Shown: positions 2,558-21,805 of the stretch, piece after piece | Numbering within the stretch: position 1 is the stretch's first letter | How the letters are laid out: each line of letters begins with the position of its first letter | IMG/VR virus record: IMGVR_UViG_2695420728_000009 | Location: 1-26,294 of that record | Source: a virus | Lineage: Duplodnaviria > Heunggongvirae > Uroviricota > Caudoviricetes | Reading direction: 5' to 3' (one strand) | DNA length: 26,294 nucleotides | Position numbers and translations under genes: made by a program | The notes under the pieces: generated by a model | The model's database searches: none | What the model saw: only the letters and a program-made list of their open reading frames with translations | What the model was told of the DNA's origin: nothing

Positions 2558-3348
2558 TTACGCCAGTTGTACGGACACGAACGCATCAGGGTCAGCCAGC
2601 AGCATCAGCGGTGCTGACTGAATCATGGTGAACTCACGCGCCGGATCGCCGGTGGTCACCCAGTTTTTCGGGTAGCGGGCAGAGGCGTTAATACCTTCGC
2701 GCTGTGCGTCCGCATCCTGAATGCAGCCATAGGTGCGCAGACCGCGTGCCTGAGAGTTCCCCAGCACCATCGTGTTGTCCGGAAGGAAGTTCTTTTTGAC
2801 GTCGTTTTCCACGTACTGTCCGGAATACACGACGATCGCCGTATCGCCATACATCCCCTTATAGGACACCGCTTCGCCCAGGTCTTTTACCGCTGTCTCC
2901 AGCTCGGAATTAGAGCCGCGACGGGTATCCAGCTTCTCCTTGACGGCTTTGAAGGAACGGAACAGCGCCCAGCCTTTCGGATCAAACACGATGATATTCA
3001 CCACTCCGCTGGCGTTCAGCGCATAGGCTTCGATATCGTCGGTCGGGTCATACGTGGACTTGTCACGCTTGCTCCACTCCGTACCACCGGACTGTGTGAT
3101 GTTGTTCGCCGCACTGCGGCCCATATCCACCTCAACCGGATCGAAGGCTTCACCGGTCATGGTGTATTTGCCCTTAAGCACAGCAGAAACTGCCTGCATC
3201 TCTTCGACCTGAGCAATGGCCAGCTCTTCGTCTCGCATGTTCTGCATGATGATGCGACGGCGGCGGTAAGCCGGGTCCGCCAGATTCTGCGGATCTTCAT
3301 CCGGCAGGCGACGCAGGGTCATCTGCGGATTCACCTCATGCTTCGGCT
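2558..3348 (-). pseudogene. E: 3' fragment of major capsid gene E (codon ~83 to native stop), separated from its 5' part by the inserted element
   Basis: Translation (V)NPQMTLRRLPDEDPQNLADPAYRRRR...FVSVQLA matches lambda gpE residues ~83-341. In-frame upstream codons give P-K-H-E-V and then a TAG at 3347..3349 where E should continue. The ORF caller's start is a GTG inside E. Confidence 0.9.
3339..3348. repeat. Left copy of the 10-bp direct repeat TGCTTCGGCT (attL-type core) at the element/E junction
   Basis: Exact 10-mer at 3339..3348 and 14528..14537, each precisely where E homology breaks; its reverse complement lies within the E codons K-P-K-H. Confidence 0.75.
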
Positions 3349-3424
3349 ACATGAGTCAAATATGAAAGGATGTGAATGATTTGATTACGTTTTAGCTATA
3401 GAATTGAAATGGAAAATCCTTGAA

Positions 3425-3445
3425 TGCAATACAACGTGCAATACA
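3425..3445 (+). promoter_or_regulatory. Tandem pair of TGCAATACA motifs (12-bp period) near the left end; candidate integrase arm-type sites
   Basis: TGCAATACA at 3425..3433 and 3437..3445. The same tandem pair in the same orientation occurs at 14380..14399 near the other end, between the int start and the right junction. Confidence 0.35.
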
Positions 3446-3482
3446 TGGATGAAAACCATCACTCATTTAACAAGAGGAATCT

Positions 3483-4388
3483 ATGCGCTCACCCAACAGA
3501 ATGCATGAACGCTCAACATTTTATAAGTATATGTCGTTGAATACCGCGAAGATTGTTCTTGATTCATGCAGCCTTAGATGGAGTTCTCCGGTCCTATTTA
3601 ATGACCCTTTTGATGTTCCAAGAGAAGTTATGCCTGGTATTAACGAAATTAATATTGGCAAAGCTTTAGCCCGCAAGTTAATAGCGGAGTTGATTACCCC
3701 CAGAGAAGACATACAAAATTTAAACCCTAGAATTAGAACAATGCTAAGTGATTTCCAAAAGTCATTTCCTTTAGGCATACCCGCAGGATTAATTGAAAGA
3801 TTTCAAGAAATGGTAAACATTCCACCAGTTGGGATTGGCGCTCCTGCGGCAATACAAGAAATGAAAGATGTCTGGCGAGGAATGCTTAATAACAGAAGGA
3901 TTTTGTGTTTATCTGAGAGCCCTATAATCACTCCTATGTGGAATCACTATGCCGATAAATATAAAGGTATAGTTATCGAATTGGATTGTGTAGACTTTCT
4001 GGATAGCGCTTGGTTAATAGCCAAACCTATGAAATACACAGATGAAATGCCTCTAACTCACACTGCTGAAGGGATGGCCGAGTTGCTTTTCATGCCAGAC
4101 AATAAGTCAATTGAATATATCAATAATGAGATAATATTCATAAAAACAGAAGAATGGGCATATGAAAGAGAGTGGAGAATTTCAACCTACGCTAGGCCAA
4201 ATAGCACTGGTCAATATAGCGACTTAAAATTTCACCCTTTTGAGTTAAAATCTGTAATACTTGGTCCTCTTTTTGATGCCAGCGAGTTCGATGAAGTCGC
4301 ATCACTAGTTAAAATGTATCCAAGAGCGAAATTATTTAAAAGTTCATTTGGGAACGACAGAAAAATATCCATAGTACCACTACCTTAA
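3483..4388 (+). CDS. DUF2971-like protein (function unknown), AT-rich cargo gene
   Basis: 301-aa ORF with N-terminal FYKY...LFNDPFD and C-terminal EREWR motifs that I recall as DUF2971 hallmarks. Markedly AT-rich relative to neighbours; convergent with the packaging module. Confidence 0.55.
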   Translation: MRSPNRMHERSTFYKYMSLNTAKIVLDSCSLRWSSPVLFNDPFDVPREVMPGINEINIGKALARKLIAELITPREDIQNLNPRIRTMLSDFQKSFPLGIPAGLIERFQEMVNIPPVGIGAPAAIQEMKDVWRGMLNNRRILCLSESPIITPMWNHYADKYKGIVIELDCVDFLDSAWLIAKPMKYTDEMPLTHTAEGMAELLFMPDNKSIEYINNEIIFIKTEEWAYEREWRISTYARPNSTGQYSDLKFHPFELKSVILGPLFDASEFDEVASLVKMYPRAKLFKSSFGNDRKISIVPLP

Positions 4389-4419
4389 AAGGTCAAATGC
4401 TTTTGACAAATAAAATCTA

Positions 4420-4445
4420 TCGCCAGTTTTACTGGCGACTTTTAA
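4420..4445. terminator. Hairpin between convergent genes (DUF2971-like and Nu1-like); likely bidirectional terminator
   Basis: TCGCCAGT-TTT-ACTGGCGA perfect 8-bp stem at 4420..4438 followed by CTTTTAA, with an A/T run on the other side. Confidence 0.5.
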
Positions 4446-4494
4446 GCAACAAAGAACCACCTAAGCACTCTTCCTACCTATGGTTTCATTTGTT

Positions 4495-5046
4495 TTAACT
4501 TCGCTGATTATCCTTGATATACCTTTCAGCCATATCTGGAATGTTATCTGAGATCTGGTAAGCTCGAATAAATGCTTTACTGACCTCCATCTTAATGAAG
4601 TCCTGATACCGTTTTTCCATGCCAGGAAACTGTCGACAGATCGCAAGTGGAAGACTATCAATGATTGCTCCAACTTCCCCAGTTAATTTCGACAAGGCAT
4701 AAGTCGCAAATGCAGTGTCAATTACCTCACCTGTTTCGCTGGCATTCTTCAGTTCCTGTGCGTCGGCCTGCGCACGCGTAAGTCGATGGCGTTCGTACTC
4801 AATAGTCCCTGGCTGGAGATCTGTCTCGCTGGCCTGCCGCAGTTCTTCAACTTCCCGGCGCAGCTTTTCGTTCTCAATTTCAGCATCCCTTTCGGCATAC
4901 CATCTTATAACGGCGGCAGAGTCATAAAGCACCTCATTACCCTTGCCACCGCCTCGCAGAACGGGCATTCCCTGTTCCTGCCAGTTCTGAATGGTACGGA
5001 TACTCGCACCGAAAATGTCAGCCAGCTGCTTTTTGTTGACTTCCAT
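4495..5046 (-). CDS. Satellite small terminase subunit, Nu1-like: N-terminal ~100 aa near-identical to helper Nu1, C-terminal domain diverged
   Basis: 183-aa translation MEVNKKQLADIFGASIRTIQNWQEQGMPVLRGGG... differs from the helper Nu1 (20171..20716) at 2 of the first ~100 residues, then diverges (NASETGEVIDTAF... versus NARDSAEVVETAF...). No large terminase gene follows. Confidence 0.85.
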   Translation of the reverse strand: MEVNKKQLADIFGASIRTIQNWQEQGMPVLRGGGKGNEVLYDSAAVIRWYAERDAEIENEKLRREVEELRQASETDLQPGTIEYERHRLTRAQADAQELKNASETGEVIDTAFATYALSKLTGEVGAIIDSLPLAICRQFPGMEKRYQDFIKMEVSKAFIRAYQISDNIPDMAERYIKDNQRS

Positions 5047-5270
5047 TGTTCATTCCACGGACAAAAACAGAGAAAGGAAACGACAGAGGCCAAAAAGCTC
5101 GCTTTCAGCACCTGTCGTTTCCTTTCTTTTCAGGGGGTATTTTAAATAAAAACATTAAGTTACGACGAAGAAGAACGGAAACGCCTTAAACCGGAAAATT
5201 TTCATAAATAGCGAAAATCCGCGCGCCTGACGCCCCGTAGCCTGTCAGATCGCCGGAAAGGACCCGCCAG
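5047..5270 (-). other. cos-like packaging site of the satellite: cosB copy with variant cosN
   Basis: 5047..5220 is identical to helper 20717..20890 apart from a single base in the R3 element. R-type TerS sites seen at 5071..5086, 5114..5129 and ~5192..5203. The cosN-equivalent 12-mer (5224..5235, CGCCTGACGCCC) differs from the helper's AGGTCGCCGCCC at 5 of 12 positions. Confidence 0.7.
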
Positions 5271-5291
5271 CCAGAGCGGGCCCTAATTTCA

Positions 5292-5675
5292 TCAACCAAT
5301 CAGCTTATAGCGACCATCCCGTGCATTGCGGCGTACACGCTCAATCTTGAGGCATAGCGCCGCATCTGGCTTTTTTGGGACAGGTACGCGGCAATATTCA
5401 GAAGCGCGAGGAATATTATTTATCCAGTCGATCACTTCACTTAAATACCAGGCCTTACGCCCTTCCGTAACCTGCACACGCTCCGGGAACTCTCCACTAG
5501 CCTCAAGGTTTAGCAGTGTACGCCGACTCAGGGTTGTAATTTCCATCACCTGATTCATATCAACAAGGCGCTCGCTTAAACACATTTTGTCAGCGATAGC
5601 TTTTAATTCCTCTACAGCTGGATTCGGGTACATCATTTCGGCAATTGGCTTAAGGTCATTGTAATCATTTTGCAT
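5292..5675 (-). CDS. AlpA/Xis-family HTH protein with N- and C-terminal extensions
   Basis: 127-aa ORF; core MNQVMEITTLSRRTLLNLEASGEFPERVQVTEGRKAWYLSEVIDWI matches the AlpA (MerR-like winged HTH) pattern. Ends 2 bp from the cos region. Confidence 0.55.
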   Translation of the reverse strand: MQNDYNDLKPIAEMMYPNPAVEELKAIADKMCLSERLVDMNQVMEITTLSRRTLLNLEASGEFPERVQVTEGRKAWYLSEVIDWINNIPRASEYCRVPVPKKPDAALCLKIERVRRNARDGRYKLIG

Positions 5676-5686
5676 TGTATCCCCCT

Positions 5687-6028
5687 TTACACACGAGCCA
5701 GCGGCTGAACAGAAATACCTGAGCCAACAAACGCTGCAATCTTTACTGACAGTTCTTTTACAGACTCAGGCCAGTTCAGAGCATCAACATTTAAGACACC
5801 TGTCTTATAGACCTGAGCCTGTGTTTTTTTCGCGGTGTCGATTTGTACAGCGGAAACATAAACCGCTTTACCTACGCTCGAACCATCCCATACCACCAGT
5901 GCACCTGTTGCATCTTCCTGCATCAGTGGCGTAAATGCAGGAATTACCCCTTTATTAGCTGAAAATATCCCCAGCGTAGTCACCAGTGCTTCAGTGCCAG
6001 CCATGAGTTCAGTGTAATGAGTAGCCAT
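5687..6028 (-). CDS. Head decoration protein, lambda gpD-like (diverged)
   Basis: 113-aa ORF; PLMQEDATGALVVWDGSS...YKTGVLNVDALNWPE...AAFVGSGISV aligns with lambda gp[19 protein letters not shown]...[15 protein letters not shown]...[10 protein letters not shown]. Confidence 0.75.
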   Translation of the reverse strand: MATHYTELMAGTEALVTTLGIFSANKGVIPAFTPLMQEDATGALVVWDGSSVGKAVYVSAVQIDTAKKTQAQVYKTGVLNVDALNWPESVKELSVKIAAFVGSGISVQPLARV

Positions 6029-6037
6029 TGCTCCCCC

Positions 6038-7084
6038 TTAGCCAATGCGAACGGTAACAAAACGATTGATGCGGGCCGGTATTGGCTGTGGTGCTGAATG
6101 TGTCTGCACATATTCAATAGCCGGATCACCAGGCACAATATAGTTTTTCGGTGCAAGTTCGGCTTTAGTCAGCCCCATTCGGATTAGCTCCGGATCCTGA
6201 ATACCGCCATAGGCGACAATCCCCTGAAGAGCCGTATTGCCAAGCACCATCAAATCAGGATCAAGGAAATGTTTTTCAGTTCCGTCCTCGTCGGTATAAC
6301 GCCCGCTGTAAACAACAATCGCAACATCGCCCATATATCCTTTAAAACTCACCGAATCACCAAGGTCTTTAAGGGCCGTTTCCAGTTCGGAATTAGAACC
6401 ACGACGGGTATCCAGAGCCTCTTTTATCGCTCTGAATGAACGGTATTTCTTCCATACATTACCGCCCATAATGATGATATTAGTGACGCCCTCACTAAAT
6501 TCTGCGTAGCTCTCAATATCATCATTTGGATCAAAAGTTTCTTTATCCTTACCTGACCACTCAGTACCGCCAGACTGAGTGATGATATTTTGTGGTTTAA
6601 TATTCCAGTCCAGCTCATAACGTTCAATACCATCGCCCTCAATGATATTTTTCCCCGTTGTGATTGCCTGAACGGCAAGCCATTCAATACGTGCACGAAT
6701 AGCTTTAGCTTGATTTACAATCGCCTGTTTAACTTTAATATTACGCGCCCCAAAAGCATTGTATTGCTCAGGTGATACACCAGCAGGGCGCACAGCTAAC
6801 TTATTTGGATCAATGCTGCTTTTCGGCTTCATATAGCCTGGACGAATTGTTTTTGATTCGTACCCTTCGTCACGTGAAACTTTACTACCCACCATAGGAG
6901 AACAAAACGCTGCAATTGGGATATTTGGATCGTCGATTGTATCAAGAATAATATCGCGCGATCCAAACATTACCGAGCGAGTAAAAAACAAACTGGTAAA
7001 CAACGCATTTAGTTGTTTTTGTACATCTACAGCATTAACCACCTGTACAAGCTGGGTAGGCGAATATAAATCAACCATACGCAT
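6038..7084 (-). CDS. Major capsid protein, lambda gpE-like (diverged; roughly half identical by eye in the C-terminal region)
   Basis: ORF 6038..7291 aligns with lambda gpE over most of its length (e.g. ITQSGGTEWSGKDKETFDPNDDIESYA... versus ITQSGGTEWSKRDKSTYDPTDDIEAYA...; TRRGSNSELETA in both). Start set at ATG 7082..7084 (MRMVDLY, matching lambda MSMYTT). Starts at 7078 or 7099 are also possible; the longer N-terminal extension has no homology. Confidence 0.85.
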   Translation of the reverse strand: MRMVDLYSPTQLVQVVNAVDVQKQLNALFTSLFFTRSVMFGSRDIILDTIDDPNIPIAAFCSPMVGSKVSRDEGYESKTIRPGYMKPKSSIDPNKLAVRPAGVSPEQYNAFGARNIKVKQAIVNQAKAIRARIEWLAVQAITTGKNIIEGDGIERYELDWNIKPQNIITQSGGTEWSGKDKETFDPNDDIESYAEFSEGVTNIIIMGGNVWKKYRSFRAIKEALDTRRGSNSELETALKDLGDSVSFKGYMGDVAIVVYSGRYTDEDGTEKHFLDPDLMVLGNTALQGIVAYGGIQDPELIRMGLTKAELAPKNYIVPGDPAIEYVQTHSAPQPIPARINRFVTVRIG

Positions 7085-7252
7085 CCTCTTTGCATTCATT
7101 AAAAATAATTGTGGATATATGCTATCACCGATATTTGTCATGCGAACACATGCAACCGAGTGCAATGTTGTATAAAGTTTTGGGGTGACAACTTCAGTGC
7201 GGACAATTAGTGTTAATATCTTCACTCCCTTTGGTCGGGATTTATGTAGCAT

Positions 7253-7283
7253 GCCGGAAAATTTATTTTTTCCGGCTTTTTTT
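7253..7283 (+). terminator. Strong hairpin followed by a T-tract, oriented antisense to the surrounding minus-strand operon
   Basis: GCCGGAAAA-TTTATT-TTTTCCGGC (9-bp stem) followed by TTTTTTT at 7277..7283. No plus-strand gene lies upstream, so its role is unclear. Confidence 0.4.
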
Positions 7284-7294
7284 ATTGGCAATAT

Positions 7295-7744
7295 TTAAAA
7301 CGGGATATCATCTCCCCATTGCTCATTATCTCCCTCTGGTGGCTGGCTTCCTTGCTGATCTGCCTGTTGTTTTGCTCTGTTCAGTGCGTCAGTAGCCTGC
7401 CCCTGTTGGCCTTTTTTGCCGCCCGGTCGCACCGATCGCGCACTGATTACGCTGTCTGCGATAACCTGCCAGCCCTGCCGCGTTTCGCCGTTCTGTCCAG
7501 TCCACTGGCTCATCTGCATGTTACCCGCCACGCTCAGGAGTTCGCCTTTGTGATGCTTTGCCAGCGCGTCGGCTTGTCTGCCAAACGCCAGGACAGATAA
7601 CCACAACGTCGCCAGACCGTCATCCGACTGACTGCAGGGCAGTGATACCGCCATACGCGCCAGCGTCATGGGGGTGCCCTTGCTGGTCTGTTTTGTCTGC
7701 GGGTCGTCCACCAACCGCCCGTAAACTGATATTTGCGCCGTCAT
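7295..7744 (-). CDS. ssb: Single-stranded DNA-binding protein (SSB)
   Basis: 149-aa ORF with OB-fold-like N-terminus, Gly/Gln-rich linker and the characteristic acidic C-terminal tail ...DDIPF. Confidence 0.85.
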   Translation of the reverse strand: MTAQISVYGRLVDDPQTKQTSKGTPMTLARMAVSLPCSQSDDGLATLWLSVLAFGRQADALAKHHKGELLSVAGNMQMSQWTGQNGETRQGWQVIADSVISARSVRPGGKKGQQGQATDALNRAKQQADQQGSQPPEGDNEQWGDDIPF

Positions 7745-7998
7745 GCTGCCTGCTCTCCGGACTTAATATTGATTGTTGTCACTTCCTCCGCTTCAGCAAT
7801 CTCCCGTTCGGTCAGCGTGGCAAAGTTTGCAGCCGCCGTTGTCATGAATGCGCTTATCAGTTCGGGATGTGCTTTCGCGTATCCTTCCCCGGCGTTGCGG
7901 TCTATTGCCTTAATCGCCACCCTTAGCCAGTGTTCAGCCATATCAAGGGCGCGGTAATGTGGCTTTATATGTTTGTTCAGTTTTCCTGATGTGTGCAT
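7741..7998 (-). CDS. Hypothetical protein (85 aa), translationally coupled to ssb
   Basis: ORF overlaps the ssb start by 4 nt in the same operon; no family recognised. Confidence 0.45.
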   Translation of the reverse strand: MHTSGKLNKHIKPHYRALDMAEHWLRVAIKAIDRNAGEGYAKAHPELISAFMTTAAANFATLTEREIAEAEEVTTINIKSGEQAA

Positions 7999-8043
7999 TT
8001 TTATTTTTACCCCCTCGTTTAAAAAGTTTTTTGTGCACCACCA

Positions 8044-8274
8044 CCTTGTCTACCTTGTCTACCTGATTAGTTATCAGGCCAGTAATGGCGCGGGTTTCAG
8101 GGAGGTAGACAGCCCCAAATAGCTGTCTACCTCATCTCTACCCGTCTCCTTACCTGTCTACAAAAATGGGTAGATAAGGTAGATAACAGGTAGACAGTGA
8201 AAAATAGTTATCTACCTGCATTAATACATTGAAATAAAAGTATTTTCTTTCAGTCAGGTAGACAAGGTAGATAA
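8044..8274. repeat. Iteron array, GGTAGA(C/T)A in both orientations (10 or more copies); putative satellite origin of replication
   Basis: Copies of TGTCTACC / GGTAGACA / GGTAGATA at ~8046, 8055, 8103, 8123, 8153, 8169, 8178, 8190, 8208, 8257 and 8266, in a non-coding stretch immediately 3' of the primase-helicase gene. Confidence 0.7.
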
Positions 8275-8287
8275 CCATTGCCATTTT

Positions 8288-10039
8288 TTATAAAAACGCA
8301 TCGCAATCATCAGTAGTCGTTGCGTTGGTCTGCGTGACTCCCTTAACTTTTCGCGTAATATATTCATATCCGTAAACTTTCGCCGCTGACCTCATAGCCT
8401 TTCCGAACTCATTCACGCTCAAACATTTCCCCTTTCCTGTGTATGCCATGAAGGCCATATAGACACGGTAAAGGCTGTTTCTGGTCGTGTACTTCACGGT
8501 GTCACCACCACCGCCCATCATTAGCCCACGAGCTTCCTCCAGAAACTCCAGCGCCGCGCAAAGCTCAACAACCGGATCCGTTTGCTGCTTTATTGCCAGA
8601 GCTTCATCACCGTCACGCTGTTCCAGTAATAAAGCCCGTGCCTTTTCAGGGGCAGCAAAATTAGCCAGCAAGCGGCGGATAATTACGGGGATTTCTGCCG
8701 CTATCTTTTCCGGTAATTCCTTGTCTTTTTCGTCCTCCCTTACAATGTTGTCGAACCGGAAAATCACCCGACGGCGTGACACACCTCCGGCCCGTTCGGT
8801 AAAGATCATCGGGTCGTTATTGGTTGCCAGTACCACCGCCCTTATTATCGTCGTGAATCGCTTCTCATATTTCGGGTTAATTTCAACGGGATCGCCTCCC
8901 GTGATTTTCTTGATGCCCGTGCCTTCCCCCGTATATTTCGGCTGATCGGCAAGGACGATAAGACGACTCCCGACAACCTGCGCGCGCCCTCCTGCATCAT
9001 CGAGTGATGTCATCTCCGCGCTTACGGTGTTCTGTTTGCCAGCAAGCAGGGTGGCAATATGGGTAAATGTACTCTTACCGCTTCCCCCGTCTCCGGTGGC
9101 CTCAATGAACATCTGCCAGTCGTAGCGGTTCGCCATAATCATGTATAACGCGGCACATATACGCATCATCTTACGCGGGTCTTTTCTTGCAGCATGTTCA
9201 AGCCATTTATGGAAATTTGGCGCATTATCGCGGATGTTTTCCCCTGCTACTGGTGGCGTGTACTCAATGCCATTGTGCGTGGTGCTCCAGTGCTCCGGCG
9301 AGTGCGGAGAAAATTCCCCCGTTTTCAGGTTAAGCACACCATTAGTGAACGGTAGCAAATCACCGGACGGCTCCCCCATGGGGTCGGCAATAACTTTTAA
9401 CGCTTCCACGGCGTTATTGATTACACGTTTGCTGAACGTGGCCCTGTGCTCTGAATAGATCGCCACCATTTCGCGGCTCAGCTCCATTGTGCTGACCGGA
9501 CACCATACCCCGCCGCGCCATACGTGGACGATTTCACTTTCTGCATGAACACACACACCATCAAAGCGATCGGCAAGTAGTTGTGCACGTTCACTGTCTG
9601 CCATCTGTGAAAGTTGCGCCTTTTGCTTCGTCGGAAGATTAAGCACCAGACTTTCCCCACGCTCGCATTCCTCTTTGAGTCGCGGCAACTGCTCGGATAA
9701 ATCCACTGGGCTGGTGTCAGTAATCCCCGCGTATTCGTGTACGGTCTTCACTCCAGCCACAGCCAGTAACGTAACAATCTGCGTCATGCTGTGCTCTGTG
9801 ATATGTCCTGCGCGGTAAACACGCACACACTGACGATCTTCATCAATGATCCGGTAATCGGTGATATTTTTCAGTTGCTCATCAGCCAGCACGACAGGCG
9901 GCACATCGTCGGCGGCAATATGTTTACCCGCCCATTCCCGCCACTCTTTCGCATGGCTCCACGCATCACTACCTGCAAAGATGATTACCTCTGTCAGTCT
10001 GTCGCGTGGCTGTTTTTTTAAGTTCGGTGCCAGTTTCAT
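8288..10039 (-). CDS. Replication initiation protein: primase-helicase (P4 alpha-like C-terminal / D5_N-SF3 helicase type)
   Basis: 583-aa ORF with Walker A EATGDGGSGKST and the overall pattern of phage/plasmid primase P4-family C-terminal domains; N-terminal region resembles a toprim-like domain. Confidence 0.85.
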   Translation of the reverse strand: MKLAPNLKKQPRDRLTEVIIFAGSDAWSHAKEWREWAGKHIAADDVPPVVLADEQLKNITDYRIIDEDRQCVRVYRAGHITEHSMTQIVTLLAVAGVKTVHEYAGITDTSPVDLSEQLPRLKEECERGESLVLNLPTKQKAQLSQMADSERAQLLADRFDGVCVHAESEIVHVWRGGVWCPVSTMELSREMVAIYSEHRATFSKRVINNAVEALKVIADPMGEPSGDLLPFTNGVLNLKTGEFSPHSPEHWSTTHNGIEYTPPVAGENIRDNAPNFHKWLEHAARKDPRKMMRICAALYMIMANRYDWQMFIEATGDGGSGKSTFTHIATLLAGKQNTVSAEMTSLDDAGGRAQVVGSRLIVLADQPKYTGEGTGIKKITGGDPVEINPKYEKRFTTIIRAVVLATNNDPMIFTERAGGVSRRRVIFRFDNIVREDEKDKELPEKIAAEIPVIIRRLLANFAAPEKARALLLEQRDGDEALAIKQQTDPVVELCAALEFLEEARGLMMGGGGDTVKYTTRNSLYRVYMAFMAYTGKGKCLSVNEFGKAMRSAAKVYGYEYITRKVKGVTQTNATTTDDCDAFL

Positions 10040-10335
10040 TTTTTGCCCCTGAATGCGTTAATCATGCTTTTCATTTTCTGGATGTTTCCCCGCGCTTTTT
10101 CCCTGCTGATGGGCTTACTGCGGGGTGCGGCATATACCAGGGAAAAATCACGCCGGAACTGATAAACAGGCATCACGCAGTCATAGCTATACCCCTCACG
10201 GCGGTAAGTGATGCGCCGTTCTGCCACGCCTTTAATCGTTACCGTGCCGCCGTATTTATCGCGGTAAATATCGCCGTTCATAAATTCAGGCCGAGCGGGG
10301 CCGCTGGCAATAAAGCCAGAATTTTTCATTTCCAT
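10036..10335 (-). CDS. Hypothetical protein (99 aa), coupled to the primase-helicase gene
   Basis: 4-nt overlap with the primase start, same strand; no family recognised. Confidence 0.5.
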   Translation of the reverse strand: MEMKNSGFIASGPARPEFMNGDIYRDKYGGTVTIKGVAERRITYRREGYSYDCVMPVYQFRRDFSLVYAAPRSKPISREKARGNIQKMKSMINAFRGKK

Positions 10336-10352
10336 ATTATTTATTCCTCGAC

Positions 10353-10574
10353 TTAACTCGACTTATTTGATAGCAGGGCACTATTTATTGCGTCATTGAG
10401 TTTTTCTGCTGATTCATCAATAAGTGACAACAGGCCATAAGCAATATTTGCATCTTCATTGTCATTTATGCAATCAAGCCACATATTTAATATTGCTTTT
10501 GCTGAATTATTTAAAGTTAATGAACTTTCTGCACATGCTAACAATTTAAAAAAGACTTCCCGTTCTGTATTCAT
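10353..10574 (-). CDS. Hypothetical small protein (73 aa), AT-rich
   Basis: Compact in-operon ORF; no recognisable motif. Confidence 0.4.
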   Translation of the reverse strand: MNTEREVFFKLLACAESSLTLNNSAKAILNMWLDCINDNEDANIAYGLLSLIDESAEKLNDAINSALLSNKSS

Positions 10575-10766
10575 TTAATCCCCCACCAGCTTACTTTCTT
10601 CCTCAATCAGGAAACTAGCGACACTTCCCGAAAGGCGCGCCAGTAGGCTCGCCAGCGCGGATATATCAGCATCTGTAATTTTGTTCGGGTATACCTCAAG
10701 AAGGCGGCAAATAATTTCTGTCTGGTGCGCACGTTCAGCGGCTTCGTGTAATGTGATTTCCTGCAT
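10575..10766 (-). CDS. Hypothetical small protein (63 aa)
   Basis: Abuts the neighbouring ORFs with no gap; no recognisable motif. Confidence 0.4.
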   Translation of the reverse strand: MQEITLHEAAERAHQTEIICRLLEVYPNKITDADISALASLLARLSGSVASFLIEEESKLVGD

Positions 10767-10951
10767 TAATGCACCTCTTTTAATTCATACACTGCTGAAA
10801 TAATGACTTGTGATAAGCCATATTCTGATGATTCGCTTCTCACCGCAGCAATAGCCGTCTGAACATTAACAGCCTTCACGTTCTGAGTGATACCAATTGT
10901 GTGGCCCAGTGGGTTAACAGCTCGGGCAAATACACGGAAGGTTTTAAGCAC
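10766..10951 (-). CDS. Hypothetical small protein (61 aa)
   Basis: Tightly packed in the same operon; no recognisable motif. Confidence 0.35.
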   Translation of the reverse strand: MLKTFRVFARAVNPLGHTIGITQNVKAVNVQTAIAAVRSESSEYGLSQVIISAVYELKEVH

Positions 10952-11207
10952 GGCACACCTCCTGACGAATACGGGCGGCGAATATCATCACGTAGCCAGT
11001 TGGGGATTGCTGGCGGGCTTCCTGTTCGCTGGCGGCCTCGATGTGTATTACGCGTGGTTGTGCGGTGCTCAGGGCGATAAAACGCCAGATGTATTTATTC
11101 AGGTTGTGCGAATCCCGCCCTTGCGGGTGTGTGGTATGATTTCTCATAGCTACCTCGATACTGTTGCTATCGTTGGTGGTTAGACGCCCTGTATGTGTTG
11201 CGAGCAC
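10944..11207 (-). CDS. Hypothetical protein (87 aa or shorter), first gene of the leftward operon
   Basis: ORF begins just downstream of the divergent promoter region 11208..11286; an internal start (MRNHTTHP...) is possible. Confidence 0.35.
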   Translation of the reverse strand: MLATHTGRLTTNDSNSIEVAMRNHTTHPQGRDSHNLNKYIWRFIALSTAQPRVIHIEAASEQEARQQSPTGYVMIFAARIRQEVCRA

Positions 11208-11243
11208 TGCAGGGCGTTGTTATATAGCAATAAAACATGATAA

Positions 11244-11286
11244 GGTGTGTACCTATCAAGAATCATACTAAGCAATAGGTACACAC
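11244..11286. promoter_or_regulatory. Perfect 12-bp inverted repeat (GTGTGTACCTAT ... ATAGGTACACAC) in the divergent promoter region; candidate operator
   Basis: Arms at 11245..11256 and 11275..11286 separated by 18 bp; the right arm ends at the ATG of the RHH gene and overlaps its ribosome-binding site. Confidence 0.45.
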
Positions 11287-11481
11287 ATGTCAACTATCAT
11301 TCAACGTGATAAACAACCGAAAGGTGCAGGTAAAGCACCAGCATTCCAAGTCCGTATTAACCCAGAATTAAAAGAACAAATGGTTAATGTCGCTGCCAAA
11401 GAAGGGATGAGCTTAGGTAACTGGCTAAAAGAACTGGCTCGTGCCGAACTAATAAAACAAGGAATAACACCTAAAGGCTGA
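11287..11481 (+). CDS. Small ribbon-helix-helix-like DNA-binding protein (YlcI/YnfO-like pattern)
   Basis: 64-aa ORF; FQVRINPELKEQMVNVAAKEGMSLGNWLKELARAEL fits a beta-strand-helix-helix (Arc/MetJ-like) pattern and resembles the helper moron 21105..21338 (IRFPNQMIEQINIALDQKGYGNFSAWVIEACRRRL). Confidence 0.55.
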   Translation: MSTIIQRDKQPKGAGKAPAFQVRINPELKEQMVNVAAKEGMSLGNWLKELARAELIKQGITPKG

Positions 11482-11504
11482 TAATTTGCATAAAGGATTC
11501 TTCT

Positions 11505-12854
11505 ATGACAACAAGTCACAAAATGCTAGAAATCAGTAAAGAACAATTTGATGTATTTTTCTATGGTCGTACACCATACGTAAAAACCTTTTCGGAGGAA
11601 ATCTGTTGGTTCAAATTTATAAAGGATGATGTCACGATCTTAGCAACAATTGTTTTTTGTAAAATAGATAATGATTACAACGCTATATTTCTAGGTAGGG
11701 ATTTAGATAAAAAATTTAGAGCGATTAAAGTAATTGTATCCCGTGAATCTAAAGATGATTTAATTACTGATATGGAAAAAGCCATACCAGAGCTATTATC
11801 ACTACACAAGAACGGTTGTTTTATACAGGGTGACGAATCAGAGTCGGCATTTTCAATATTCCTAGCCAAAGTTCCAGAACATAAAAAAAACGTTTATCTA
11901 AGAATGCTACTTGAGGAACCCAAACACTATCCTGCATTTATTGTTATGCAAGAGTTAGCTTATTGGTGTAAAGATCCTGATGGAATATTCATCAGAGATT
12001 TCCAGAGTGCTTCATTTAACTCTCGCTTATTCGAACTTTATCTAAACGCAGTTTTCTACGAAATGGATTTCGTAATATGCAGAGATTATGCTCAACCTGA
12101 TTATATTATCTCAAAAAATGGCATTGATATTGCTGTAGAAGCTGCCACAGTTGCAGAACAAGAGGAACCTACCGAGAAATTGATACTTGATCATGAGGCA
12201 GTAGAAGATCTTCAGAGATATGTAAAAGAACAAATGCCATTCAAATTTGCCCGCACTCTATTAAAGAAAGTTAGGCATAAACCTGAACCCTTAAAATTAT
12301 GCTATTGGGAACTAGATCATACAAAAGGAAAGCCTTTCATTATTGCTTTACACGATTACTCACGCAGATTTTCGATGAGTATATCAATGCCAGCACTACA
12401 AAGCTATCTGTATGGTGTAGATATGGATTCTGGAAGTAAAATTGAACAACATTTATTTGAAAATCGAAGTATACAATCTAATTTTTTCGGCTCTAATAAA
12501 AATGAGAATGTCTCAGCCATATTACTTGCGACACATGCCACCATCCCAAAATTTGATAGGATGGGAGTAGTGGCAGGGATTGAACAAAAAAATGTCAAAT
12601 CCATCGTTAGAGGTATTAAAACTGATGAAGGCTGTACCCCAATGCCTTTTACTGCTCTTGTCAATGCACCTTCATATCAAGAACCATGGTGTACAGCAAT
12701 ATACATGTTTCATAATCCGAAGGCATTAAATCCTATACGCCCTGAATTATTCCCAAGAGTTATTCATATTTTTGAAGAAGATGGAGAAATAGTTCAATAC
12801 TTACCACCTAATTATATAATCTCATCAACTACGCACGTATTTGAATTTAAGTGA
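11505..12854 (+). CDS. Large unknown protein (449 aa), AT-rich cargo; candidate defence or toxin effector
   Basis: Long clean ORF 23 bp downstream of the RHH gene; very low GC compared with flanking satellite genes. No family recognised by eye; a weak PD-(D/E)xK-like stretch (QPDYIISKNGIDIAVEAA) is noted without confidence. Confidence 0.7.
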   Translation: MTTSHKMLEISKEQFDVFFYGRTPYVKTFSEEICWFKFIKDDVTILATIVFCKIDNDYNAIFLGRDLDKKFRAIKVIVSRESKDDLITDMEKAIPELLSLHKNGCFIQGDESESAFSIFLAKVPEHKKNVYLRMLLEEPKHYPAFIVMQELAYWCKDPDGIFIRDFQSASFNSRLFELYLNAVFYEMDFVICRDYAQPDYIISKNGIDIAVEAATVAEQEEPTEKLILDHEAVEDLQRYVKEQMPFKFARTLLKKVRHKPEPLKLCYWELDHTKGKPFIIALHDYSRRFSMSISMPALQSYLYGVDMDSGSKIEQHLFENRSIQSNFFGSNKNENVSAILLATHATIPKFDRMGVVAGIEQKNVKSIVRGIKTDEGCTPMPFTALVNAPSYQEPWCTAIYMFHNPKALNPIRPELFPRVIHIFEEDGEIVQYLPPNYIISSTTHVFEFK

Positions 12855-12859
12855 TTTCA

Positions 12860-12886
12860 AATCCTATGGGTTTACCCCATAGGATT
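12860..12886. terminator. 11-bp perfect-stem hairpin between convergent genes (449-aa cargo and alpA)
   Basis: AATCCTATGGG-TTTA-CCCATAGGATT at 12860..12886, 6 bp after the cargo stop codon. Confidence 0.5.
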
Positions 12887-12905
12887 ACATCCACTGTCTA
12901 AATTC

Positions 12906-13127
12906 TTACCACTCTCCCCTAATCCATGCCTGCACTTCTGAAAGACGATATGCAACAGCAGTGGAACCAATCTTGATCCGCTTAGGAAATTTTCCTTCCT
13001 TCTCCAGCTTCCAGCGTGTGCTGTTCGCAAGAGTGGTTAGCTCCCGACATTCTTTCTCACGGATCATACGATCGATATTAGGAATGTACTCCAGACCCTT
13101 TTTATCGACAATTGCCATTTTTTTCAT
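12906..13127 (-). CDS. alpA: AlpA-family transcriptional regulator / excisionase-like protein
   Basis: 73-aa ORF; RELTTLANSTRWKLEKEGKFPKRIKIGSTAVAYRLSEVQAWI matches the AlpA HTH signature; immediately downstream of int on the same strand. Confidence 0.85.
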   Translation of the reverse strand: MKKMAIVDKKGLEYIPNIDRMIREKECRELTTLANSTRWKLEKEGKFPKRIKIGSTAVAYRLSEVQAWIRGEW

Positions 13128-13128
13128 G

Positions 13129-14364
13129 TTAACCAGCCTTTTGTTTGAGGATTGTCACTTTTGAATCAGCACCTGCGATGCTATTGAGATATGTAGTCCA
13201 GAGTTCCAGAGCATCCAGTTTTTTAGCCATAAACTTACTCCGGTTGTAAACACCTGCCACGCCAGGTAGCGCATGGCCTAACAGTTGTTCTACTACATAA
13301 AATTCAACACCGAGATCACTTAGATGAGTAGATAGCGTTCTTCTAAGGTCGTGTAGTGACCATTGTTTTTCATGGCCCAAACGTTTACCGATTTTCCCCC
13401 CAATCTTGCTTACGCTTTCTCTAATTCGCAGACTTCCCAGCACATAACCAGTATGTTTTGTCTCTTCGTGAACATCCGTTACCCACTGTCGTAGAATTTC
13501 AGGTACTGGTCTGACGATTTCAACACCAGTTTTTGAGTGATCTTTTGGTACAGTCCAAACCCAACTTTCGAGATCCCATTCGCTCCATTCTGATAATCGG
13601 GCTTCACTCATTCGACATCCAAATACTGTACAAAGCACAAACATTTTTCGCGTGTATTCAGACATTAGTTTTAAATCAGGCTCGACAAAAATTGCCTTCC
13701 AGAGCTGGCCGAGTTCGGCTTCATCCAGAACCCGATCCCGCTTACCTGCAATCTGCCCCACATCACTCATGCGCAAATCCTTTAAAGCATCACACGTCGC
13801 GTACTGGCGTACCCGACAAAAACGAAGAGCTAATTTAGTGTCAGAAAAAACATACGCCGCCATAACTGGTGCATTACGTTTAATTCGGTCAAAACAGTCC
13901 AGCCATTCATATAGGTGAGTGTCATTTACGGGCAAATGACCGATATAGGGAAAGATATGCTTTCGAAATCTGCCAAGCGTTACAGCATGAGTTTTACGAC
14001 GCACCTTACAGTAATTTTCATACCAGTAATTTAGTGCATCCTCCACTGTGACCGGCTTTAAGCGTTCTTCAGCCTGAATCTTAATCTGGATACGCGGATC
14101 ACGTTTGTCAGCCAACCAACCACGGCACTCGTCGCGCTTTTCCCTTGCCTGTTTGAGTGACATATCAGGATATTTACCCAACGTTAGCCAGACCGGAGCA
14201 GCCCGGCCACCTGCTAACCTGTAGAAGAAAACAAAGCTCACAGCCCCTTTAGTACTCACACGAATAGAAAGCCCCTTTCCATCAGCAATGGTGATCTGCT
14301 TTTCTCTGGGTTTCCCCAGATATCCTTTAAGCGCTTTGTCGCTCAGTTTGTTCTCGCCAGCCAT
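13129..14364 (-). CDS. int: Tyrosine site-specific integrase (P4-type)
   Basis: N-terminus MAGENKLSDKALKGYLGKPREKQITIADGKGLSIRVSTKG... typical of the P4-integrase N-terminal domain; C-terminal catalytic region with HDLRRT and LLGH motifs and a Tyr-containing tail. Start set at ATG 14362..14364; the 17 upstream codons are extension. Confidence 0.9.
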   Translation of the reverse strand: MAGENKLSDKALKGYLGKPREKQITIADGKGLSIRVSTKGAVSFVFFYRLAGGRAAPVWLTLGKYPDMSLKQAREKRDECRGWLADKRDPRIQIKIQAEERLKPVTVEDALNYWYENYCKVRRKTHAVTLGRFRKHIFPYIGHLPVNDTHLYEWLDCFDRIKRNAPVMAAYVFSDTKLALRFCRVRQYATCDALKDLRMSDVGQIAGKRDRVLDEAELGQLWKAIFVEPDLKLMSEYTRKMFVLCTVFGCRMSEARLSEWSEWDLESWVWTVPKDHSKTGVEIVRPVPEILRQWVTDVHEETKHTGYVLGSLRIRESVSKIGGKIGKRLGHEKQWSLHDLRRTLSTHLSDLGVEFYVVEQLLGHALPGVAGVYNRSKFMAKKLDALELWTTYLNSIAGADSKVTILKQKAG

Positions 14365-14379
14365 TTTTAGCCCCAAAAA

Positions 14380-14399
14380 GCAATACAAGCTGCAATACA
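14380..14399 (+). promoter_or_regulatory. Second tandem pair of GCAATACA motifs (12-bp period); candidate integrase arm-type sites / int promoter region
   Basis: GCAATACA at 14380..14387 and TGCAATACA at 14391..14399; same motif, spacing and orientation as the pair at 3425..3445. Confidence 0.35.
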
Positions 14400-14526
14400 G
14401 AGATGATTGCAACACACAGATAACGAGGAAAATTCAGTGAAAGCACCAGATAAACTTATTCTTTATTATCAAAAGATTAAGTGTAAAAACCAGCAACTAC
14501 ACGAAAGCCTCAGAAAGCCATGCTAA

Positions 14527-14772
14527 GTGCTTCGGCTTGACATATCCCGGTGTAAATTCAGAGGTGGAGCCGCCACGGGAGCGGATAACCTCACCGGAAA
14601 CAATCGGCGAAACGTACAGCGCCATGTTTACCAGTCCCGGAATTTGTGAGAGATAGACTTTCTCCGTGGTGAAGGGATAGCTCTCACGGAAAAAGAGACG
14701 CAGAAACAGCGGATCAAACTTAAATTTCTTCTCATTTGCCGCCAGCAGCTGGGCGGTTGTGTACATCGACAT
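14527..14772 (-). pseudogene. E: 5' fragment of major capsid gene E (codons 1-82), truncated by the element
   Basis: From ATG 14770..14772: MSMYTTAQLLAANEKKFKFDPLFLRLFFRESYPFTTEKVYLSQIPGLVNMALYVSPIVSGEVIRSRGGSTSEFTPGYVKPKH matches the lambda gpE N-terminus, then reads into element sequence (LAWLSEAFV, stop at 14497). Confidence 0.9.
14528..14537. repeat. Right copy of the 10-bp direct repeat TGCTTCGGCT (attR-type core)
   Basis: Exact match to 3339..3348; E homology ends at 14527. Confidence 0.75.
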
Positions 14773-14827
14773 AAAAAAATCCCGTAAAAAAAGCCGCACA
14801 GGCGGCCTTTAGTGATGAAGGGTAAGG

Positions 14828-20716: not shown

Positions 20717-20940
20717 TGTTCATTCCACGGACAAAAACAGAGAAAGGAAACGACAGAGGCCAAAAAGCTCGCTTTCAGCACCTGTCGTTTCCTTTCTTTT
20801 CAGGGGGTATTTTAAATAAAAACATTAAGTTACGACGAAGAAGAACGGAAACACCTTAAACCGGAAAATTTTCATAAATAGCGAAAACCCGCGAGGTCGC
20901 CGCCCCGTAACCTGTCGGATCGCCGGAAAGGACCCGCAAA
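20717..20940 (-). other. cos: cos site of the helper prophage (cosB R-sites plus cosN cohesive-end sequence at 20894..20905)
   Basis: Reverse complement of 20894..20905 is GGGCGGCGACCT, the lambda 12-nt cohesive end, flanked by ...CGCG and CGTAACCTGTCGGATCGCC... as at the lambda genome ends. R-type sites (CTGTCGTTTCCTTTCT, AGAAAGGAAACGACAG) lie between cosN and the Nu1 start. Confidence 0.88.
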
Positions 20941-21104: not shown

Positions 21105-21338
21105 ATGTCAACGAAGAACAGAACCCGCAGAACAACAATCCGCAACATCCGCTTTCCTAACCAAATGATTGAACAAATTAACATCGCTCTTGATCAAAAA
21201 GGGTACGGGAATTTCTCAGCCTGGGTCATTGAAGCCTGCCGCCGGAGACTGTGCTCAGAAAAAAGAGTTTCTCCTGAAGCAAACAAAGAAAAGAGTGACA
21301 TTACTGAATTGCTCAGAAAACAGATCAGACCAGATTGA
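21105..21338 (+). CDS. YlcI/YnfO-family small protein (RHH-like), prophage moron
   Basis: 77-aa ORF MSTKNRTRRTTIRNIRFPNQMIEQINIALDQKG... resembles E. coli cryptic-prophage YnfO/YlcI proteins as I recall them; opposite strand to the late operon, at the bor-like position next to cos. Confidence 0.6.
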   Translation: MSTKNRTRRTTIRNIRFPNQMIEQINIALDQKGYGNFSAWVIEACRRRLCSEKRVSPEANKEKSDITELLRKQIRPD

Positions 21339-21394
21339 AGCAATTTAGATAATCGTGCAGACTACGCCCCTCATATCACATGGAAGGTACTACA

Positions 21395-21805
21395 ATGGCT
21401 CAGGTTGCCATTTTTAAACAAATATTCGATAAAGTGCGAAATAATTTAAACTATCACTGGTTTTATTCTGAACTAAAACGTCACAATGTCTCACATTACA
21501 TTTACTATTTAGCTACAGAGAATATTCATCTTGTTCTTGAAAACGATAATACGGTTTTAATAAAAGGACAGGGTAAGGTTGTAAATGTAAGATTTTCAAA
21601 AAATAAATGCCTTATAGAAGCCACCTTAAAAGGATTCAAATCAGGAGAGTTATCATTTTACGAATACAGGAAAAATCTTGCTACAGCAGGGGTTTTCAGA
21701 TGGATTACAAATATCCACGAAAACAAAAGGTATTACTATACCTTTGATAATTCATTACTCTTTACTGAGAACATTCAGAACACTACACAAATATTTCCGC
21801 ACTAA
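21395..21805 (+). CDS. YdfO-like protein (DUF1398 family), prophage moron
   Basis: Translation ...[55 protein letters not shown]...[25 protein letters not shown] closely resembles E. coli Qin-prophage YdfO as I recall it. Start placed at the second ATG (21395), which has a GGAAGG ribosome-binding site; 21380 is the alternative. Confidence 0.62.

Follow-up and report, generated by a model that had tools for sequence, protein, structure and literature searches.

The DNA analysed here (the window) is a stretch of 26,294 nucleotides, positions 1 to 26,294 of the IMG/VR virus record IMGVR_UViG_2695420728_000009. At positions 11,244 to 12,886 it carries two co-oriented genes, one encoding a 64-residue ribbon-helix-helix (RHH) protein and the other a protein of 449 residues. 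We consider it likely that an 11capE-type helper-embedded phage-inducible chromosomal island (HE-PICI) has its 5′ cargo slot here, that the anti-phage effector PD-T7-1 is its cargo, and that an Arc-family RHH protein is the backbone regulator, acting at a predicted operator. This makes the locus a known system in a known satellite hotspot instead of a novel defence candidate. The effector, the type of satellite and the kind of hotspot were already known; the new parts are the co-variation between regulator and operator and the unannotated cargo families of the slot. The features of the locus are as follows.

10944..11147, minus strand: icd-like gene, first gene of the leftward operon and left neighbour of the switch region (NCBIfam phage_ICD_like, E 1.1e-19)
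11245..11286: inverted repeat, predicted RHH operator; arms GTGTGTACCTAT (11245-11256) and ATAGGTACACAC (11275-11286), 12 nt each, 100% complementary, 18-nt spacer
11287..11481, plus strand: Arc-family RHH gene, 64 amino acids (aa), satellite backbone gene and first gene of the rightward cargo operon (profile, Foldseek and model)
11482..12900, plus strand: exchangeable cargo cassette (blastn against loci L002, L119, L121 and L122)
11505..12854, plus strand: PD-T7-1 defence gene, 449 aa (full-length PADLOC match, family alignment, AlphaFold (AF2) model)
12860..12886: stem-loop between the convergent PD-T7-1 and alpA genes, part of the cassette; AATCCTATGGG (12860-12870) and CCCATAGGATT (12876-12886), 11 bp with a 5-nt loop
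12906..13127, minus strand: alpA, right border of the cargo slot, in the satellite integration zone (Pfam Phage_AlpA, E 2.7e-15)

PD-T7-1 as cargo of an exchangeable slot

The RHH and 449-aa genes are separated by 23 nt, the RHH start lying 218 nt upstream of that of its neighbour, and the pair is flanked by alpA and by the icd-like gene that heads the leftward operon; at sister loci PGAP annotates a 67-aa form of the latter. An earlier note, made from the sequence alone, had described the two open reading frames (ORFs), a perfect 12-nt inverted repeat and a hairpin after the operon, and all of these are present where it placed them. Its description of both genes as AT-rich holds mainly for the 449-aa gene (GC 0.345). 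The RHH gene (0.41) differs little from alpA (0.446) and int (0.45), being slightly poorer in GC; neighbouring genes range from 0.446 to 0.495.

The 449-aa protein, which the earlier note could not place in any family, is on sequence grounds PD-T7-1. A PADLOC search of the element, as that note had proposed, gave a full-length match to PDLC04073 (PD-T7-1; E 1.3e-153, 510 bits, residues 7-447 against positions 1-448 of 452), and phrog_8571 also matches (E 7.5e-90); searches of the protein against Pfam and NCBIfam returned no match. In an alignment of 36 PD-T7-1 homologues the residues E177, P198-D199 and E212 are invariant, as are K255, D284 and H403-N404-P405. The AlphaFold model (pLDDT 91.8, pTM 0.91) comprises an N-terminal alpha/beta domain (~1-105), a PD-(D/E)xK-like core (~130-285) and a beta-rich C-terminal domain (~295-449). 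Comparison of folds, also proposed earlier, gave nuclease matches (CdiA-CT, Hjc, HindIII and BsmI), all of them weak. Published HHpred results for PD-T7-1 point to Hjc (80%) and PDDEXK_5 on residues 171-219 (PMC9519451), the same residues that contain the invariant E177, P198-D199 and E212 of our alignment. A PD-(D/E)xK nuclease assignment is plausible but thin, as it was in the original paper. The PD-T7-5 model (Vassallo et al. 2022) matches the protein in part (PADLOC E 7e-39, residues 118-424); the homology covers the nuclease core and the C-terminal domain and leaves out the N-terminal ~110-residue alpha/beta domain of PD-T7-1, which may be the part that recognizes infection.

A functional selection yielded PD-T7-1 from E. 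coli ECOR46, in the form of one coding sequence (CDS) labelled 'Nuclease' (Vassallo 2022, PMC9519451), with an ORF span of 449 codons. A low-copy plasmid served to confirm its activity. Clones of the native locus protect E. coli K-12 from T7-like and, more so, from T-even phages, and PD-T7-1 was classed as a single-gene system (PMC9519451). The allele of strain NILS69, cloned into K-12, protects against a Teseptimavirus and makes T7 plaques smaller (PMC12409345). The protein described here resembles that of ECOR46 (RCQ85672.1) in its full-length model match, its length, the position of a putative nuclease motif (177-219), the host species and its being a single effector on a mobile element. 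No difference was found in the effector. The published description is of one CDS and does not mention an upstream Arc-like gene, though the 302-nt flank of that clone would contain the RHH gene if the locus is arranged as here. Only two complete E. coli genomes, CP054371 (L001, 12625-13707) and CP116925 (H2), have this exact locus, and their annotations show a truncated or split PD-T7-1 (360 aa in one case; two ORFs, one of 316 aa, in the other). They differ from the window by 1-2 nt in length, which could reflect either real inactivation or homopolymer errors in assembly.

Comparison of related loci separates the two genes. When positions 11150-12950 were compared by megablast with 5426 complete E. 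coli genomes, the whole locus was found in 2 of them, and its first 200-313 nt, comprising the end of the icd-like gene, the intergenic region and the RHH gene, in 250. The exchange points in blastn alignments are the RHH stop codon (~11477-11482) and the alpA stop codon (~12900-12907): in sister satellites that carry other cargo, homology ends at the former and restarts at the latter. A 241-aa protein, a putAbiC protein, a 147-aa membrane protein and a SWIM protein follow the RHH gene in such satellites. At 80 IMG/VR loci the slot is empty or holds one of eight cargo families, all co-oriented with the RHH gene; among these families, only PD-T7-1 has a strong PADLOC match. In L103-L110 (for instance in E2348/69) the RHH gene stands alone between the icd-like operon and alpA, and this allele is indexed in >2500 collection blocks.

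Outside this setting, no RHH gene was detectable upstream of PD-T7-1 homologues at 80 loci from other species, where upstream genes of every size occur. A P2-like Yersinia phage and a lambdoid coliphage each carry a homologue, of 60% identity, as a lone moron. The pair also occurs outside an intact satellite, in L111-L114, where homology extends 26 nt into alpA and the context looks like a satellite remnant. Because the RHH gene occurs without cargo or with at least eight unrelated cargos, and because the cassette is swapped between the RHH and alpA stop codons, we assign the RHH gene to the satellite backbone and not to the defence system proper. This favours what the earlier note had offered as its alternative, namely that the RHH protein is a satellite regulator and the 449-aa protein its cargo. 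The suggestion there of a novel defence or toxin module stands as far as defence cargo in a satellite hotspot is concerned but loses its novelty, the effector being the already validated PD-T7-1. The single-gene status of PD-T7-1 is well supported by comparative genomics, while the published clones contained native upstream DNA.

The stem-loop at 12860-12886 (-16.7 kcal/mol, z = -4.5) belongs to the cassette. Its stem is kept, with a different loop, in alleles of 82% DNA identity, and most other cargo cassettes have a hairpin of their own at the same place. As a canonical intrinsic terminator it was rejected: it has no U-tract on either strand and was not called by a terminator scan.

Two further observations concern the slot and its contents. 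Five of its cargo families have no match to any defence model: those of 147 aa (L121/L171), 241 aa (L002/L127), 395 aa (DUF5677; L125), 180 aa (L135) and 176 aa (L191). Two of the five are predicted membrane proteins, and that of 180 aa has a PD...DxK-like motif; all five are plausibly new anti-phage genes. In Morganella phage IME1369_01 (L204, KY653118) 24 codons remain of the 3′ end of the RHH gene (79% identity), at ~2903-2974 just upstream of a PD-T7-1 homologue, which suggests that the cassette was gained there by recombination through the RHH gene.

The Arc-like protein and its predicted operator and opposed promoters

By profile and model, the 64-aa protein is an Arc-family RHH protein with a beta-alpha-alpha fold. 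A profile of its family (64 clusters, from Enterobacterales plus Aeromonas) has P22 Arc as its best solved match (E 9.2e-5, residues 12-59 against Arc 2-49). Foldseek ranks Arc first for the model, followed by DinJ, CopA, ParG, NikA and AmrZ, and the top matches are all RHH proteins. PHROG 228, 'Arc-like repressor', matches at E 1.2e-5. The Pfam models HicB (E 5e-4, 20.3 bits against a cut-off of 21) and Arc (14.1 bits against 20.4) both stay just below threshold, and PGAP names the protein 'HicB family antitoxin' or sometimes 'YlcI/YnfO family'. The monomer is modelled with a beta-strand from F20 to N25 within an extended stretch (19-25), helix A at 26-38 and helix B at 43-57 (pLDDT >90). It consists of an 18-residue basic N-terminal arm and a 45-residue RHH fold, and its chain ends 7 residues past helix B. 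Residues Q9, N11 and R13 of Arc are the beta-sheet residues that read bases in the Arc-operator structure. They align with A19, Q21 and R23 of the present protein, and R23 is invariant in the family.

The perfect inverted repeat immediately upstream of the RHH gene is expected by chance, as a 12-mer with its arms within 80 nt, ~0.01 times per 1.8 kb. It was found in 53 of 53 distinct upstream sequences, always with the right arm touching the ATG and with an unconserved spacer of 16-21 nt. In agreement with the earlier note, which had it overlap the RHH ribosome-binding site, the right arm contains the AGG of the Shine-Dalgarno sequence. The arms fall into five classes, and these pair one-to-one with five pairs of residues at RHH positions 19 and 21:

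arm GTGTGTACCTAT: residues 19/21 AQ
arm GTGTACACCTAT (class 2): residues 19/21 PH
arm GTATAGACCTA: residues 19/21 MN
arm GTACGTACnTAA: residues 19/21 TQ
arm GTATGGACC: residues 19/21 IS

Such co-variation is what direct read-out of the arms by the RHH strand predicts. It represents five lineages and not many independent events, and is hence suggestive rather than statistical. As the arm classes track the equivalents of Arc Q9 and N11, and as conserved elements resembling promoters overlap the inverted repeat, its most likely role is that of operator for the RHH protein. The promoter-like elements are these.

11217..11246, plus strand: predicted rightward promoter P_R of the RHH gene and cargo; TTGTTA (11217-11222), 18 nt, extended -10 TGaTAAGGT (11238-11246)
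11265..11293, minus strand: predicted leftward sigma-70 promoter P_L of the icd-like to primase operon, from a consensus scan; TTGACA (11293-11288), 17 nt, TAGTAT (11270-11265)

The -35 element of P_L is the reverse complement of RHH codons 1-3 (ATGTCAAC). Codon 2 is TCA in all 53 distinct sequences, despite the existence of six serine codons, and codon 3 varies freely. With respect to P_L, the right arm of the repeat lies inside the promoter spacer and the left arm at ~+2 to +13. With respect to P_R, for which a TGnTA motif is found at the same position in 53/53 of the upstream sequences, the left arm overlaps the -10 element and +1. If both promoters are real, we infer that they face each other with start sites ~5 nt apart, near 11253 for P_R and near 11258 for P_L. 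Such an arrangement would resemble the immI region of P22, where Arc controls opposed promoters.

A second, GC-rich hairpin, ACGCCCTG...CAGGGCGT (11183-11216, -23 to -25 kcal/mol), is a conserved feature upstream of the RHH gene, present in nearly all of the satellites examined; some alleles show a compensatory change in it from T-A to C-G. In many alleles a T-run comes after it on the plus strand, which gives it the look of a terminator. In position it is antisense to the icd-like operon leader and overlaps the putative -35 of P_R, and it has no match in Rfam. A search of Rfam for an immunity RNA of the C4, isrK or P4 CI-like type by the icd-like gene found no match in the whole window when gathering thresholds were applied, and no meaningful one at E <= 5 in positions 10900-13000.

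Proposed regulation and alternative explanations

In the regulation that we propose, RHH dimers would bind both arms of the inverted repeat, P_R would drive the RHH gene and the cargo, and P_L would drive the replication operon from the icd-like gene to the primase gene. By autoregulating its own operon the RHH protein would keep the nuclease at a low steady level, as Arc of P22 limits arc-ant, and it would in addition shut the replication operon of the satellite in the quiescent state.

Several observations weigh against this. P_R was read from the sequence and not called by the consensus promoter scan, and its -10 element, TAAGGT, would be weak but for the TG extension. Compensatory change on both arms of the repeat is equally expected from an RNA or DNA hairpin. 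Gram-negative PICIs (GN-PICIs) are described as AlpA-controlled, and the HE-PICI paper describes no Arc-like regulator (PMC10111431). Finally, the ECOR46 clone of PD-T7-1 extended past the ORF by 45 nt at one end and 302 nt at the other (PMC9519451), and that of NILS69 by at least 200 nt upstream (PMC12409345). Since the RHH gene starts 218 nt upstream of PD-T7-1 in the window, both clones probably carried all or most of it, if the loci are arranged as here. A contribution of the RHH protein to defence, or to tolerating the nuclease, is probably compatible with them.

An extension of the proposal, which we offer tentatively as possible rather than probable, is that the Arc-like protein is the master switch of a large group of Gram-negative PICIs. 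As a repressor on the opposed promoters it would set the satellite either to quiescence with the cargo on (P_R) or to replication (P_L), with at least five immunity-like specificity classes defined by the two base-reading residues, and the cargo would be expressed only in the silent satellite. A corollary, if this were true, is that the five unassigned cargo families of the slot are new anti-phage genes.

Conversely, the RHH protein might regulate its own cargo operon only, promoter and regulator forming an insulated adaptor with no role in the life cycle, in which case P_L would not be real. The layout resembles that of arc-ant, all cargos are co-oriented with the RHH gene, and the early genes of GN-PICIs are reported to depend on AlpA (PMC10111431). 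On the other hand, satellites whose slot is empty keep the RHH gene, as one would expect if it had a function of its own. A perfect TTGACA, the invariant TCA codon and a -10 element at 17-18 nt are aimed at the icd-like operon, moreover, with both arms of the repeat inside. We regard this restricted role as unlikely.

Less credence still is due to the possibility that the repeat acts as an RNA hairpin (or a cruciform), its 12-bp stem hiding the Shine-Dalgarno sequence and start codon of the RHH gene and so throttling translation of the operon. The region does fold (-16.6 kcal/mol, z = -4.5), with the AGG-containing right arm reaching the ATG, and the changes from class to class do preserve pairing on both arms. 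However, within a class the arm sequence itself is kept, beyond what pairing requires, whereas the 16-21-nt loop is unconserved, and a hairpin gives no need for the classes to track residues 19 and 21. Furthermore, the predicted start sites of P_R and P_L lie between the arms or in the left arm, so that neither transcript would include both arms.

An obligatory pair of the type II toxin-antitoxin kind, with PD-T7-1 as toxic nuclease and the RHH protein as antitoxin and autorepressor, which the earlier note had entertained, is the least probable explanation: the small RHH gene, the 23-nt gap, the effector and the promoter palindrome do form the order typical of such operons, PGAP does use the name 'HicB family antitoxin', both genes did move jointly into the non-satellite context of L111-L114 and RHH sequence was probably present in the published clones, but the allele indexed in those >2500 blocks has no downstream gene, the RHH gene precedes at least seven other unrelated cargos, the 80 homologues from other species and three phage lineages have PD-T7-1 without an intact RHH gene, the 64-aa protein has no extra C-terminal segment of the kind that RHH antitoxins use to neutralize toxins, and PD-T7-1 is classed as a single-gene system.

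If the preferred reading is correct, with the RHH protein as backbone regulator and PD-T7-1 as cargo, E. coli PD-T7-1 normally stands behind a predicted Arc-like autoregulator; the two genes are adjacent in every close E. coli allele examined. This bears on how its expression level, toxicity and phage range are to be read. The co-variation of residues and predicted operators provides a natural specificity series for RHH-DNA recognition. It also gives a hint that a repressor may act as switch in Gram-negative PICIs, for which current descriptions name AlpA as the driver. Bounded by the RHH and alpA stop codons, the slot itself can serve as a precise handle for searches and has already yielded the five cargo families without a defence annotation.

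The satellite, its helper and the closest known relatives

The window is a lambdoid prophage, in which the genes Nu1, A, B, C and D are found to one side and FI, FII, Z, U and V to the other. A satellite of ~11.2 kb interrupts its capsid gene E and leaves two pieces, both recognized as Phage_cap_E fragments: the N-terminal one at 14497..14799 and the C-terminal one at 2558..3334. A 10-bp attachment (att) core, TGCTTCGGCT, at 3340-3349 and 14530-14539 bounds the satellite, in which int, alpA, D5_N primase, cap_E, HDPD and Nu1 genes were found. By sequence, the element (3340-14539) is an 11capE-type HE-PICI in the lambdoid capsid gene. Satellites of this type, with a 10-bp att block and a capsid gene of their own, were described by Mageeney et al. 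2023 (PMC10111431). Immune genes have been reported at both ends of PICIs, 5′ and 3′, and beside pri (cited in PMC11364771), and with such hotspots known a defence gene beside alpA is expected.

The element shares with the described 11capE HE-PICIs the integrase target in lambdoid gene E, the 10-bp att core and the satellite's own capsid gene. The order of integration genes, variable middle zone, replication genes and late genes is likewise shared, as is the defence cargo near the int/alpA end. It differs from the description by Mageeney et al. 2023, in which all non-hypothetical genes are called unidirectional and an opposite-strand unit of RHH gene and cargo, with its operator, is not discussed (PMC10111431).

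P22 Arc is the closest solved relative of the 64-aa protein, and immI resembles the locus in having a small RHH gene first in the operon, an operator within closely opposed promoters and an autoregulatory logic, the last two being predictions in our case. The predicted operator differs from the compact 21-bp site of Arc in having two 12-nt arms ~30 bp apart, centre to centre, and the downstream gene is a swappable defence cargo and not an antirepressor as in arc-ant.

The other genes of the satellite are listed below.

4495..5046, minus strand: Nu1-like small terminase (Pfam E 3.6e-84)
5292..5675, minus strand: second AlpA-like regulator
5687..6028, minus strand: gpD-like decoration protein
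6038..7291, minus strand: gpE-like capsid protein
7295..7744, minus strand: single-stranded DNA-binding protein (SSB)
8288..10039: D5_N primase, end of the leftward operon that starts with the icd-like gene
13129..14415: int, with integrase domains found in the Pfam search

The iteron-like repeats found at 8103-8290, a short way downstream of the primase gene, resemble an origin. A satellite cos site upstream of the RHH gene was considered and rejected: the only match to cosN (GGGCGGCGACCT) is that of the helper, at 20894-20905. Near this cos site the helper carries, at 21105..21805 on the plus strand, a gene for a DUF3950 (YnfO-like) protein followed by one for a DUF1398 (YdfO-like) protein, a layout parallel to that of RHH gene and cargo. 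The YnfO-like gene (21105..21338) was rejected as a close RHH paralogue with a shared operator, since its DUF3950 product is strongly diverged. A second AT-rich cargo (GC ~0.37) lies at the 3′ end of the satellite (3483..4388, plus strand) and encodes a 301-aa DUF2971 protein. This protein matches PADLOC PDC-S31 (E 3.4e-31), a candidate rather than a validated system, and at the corresponding position of the sister locus in strain SCU-316 a 'restriction endonuclease' is annotated.

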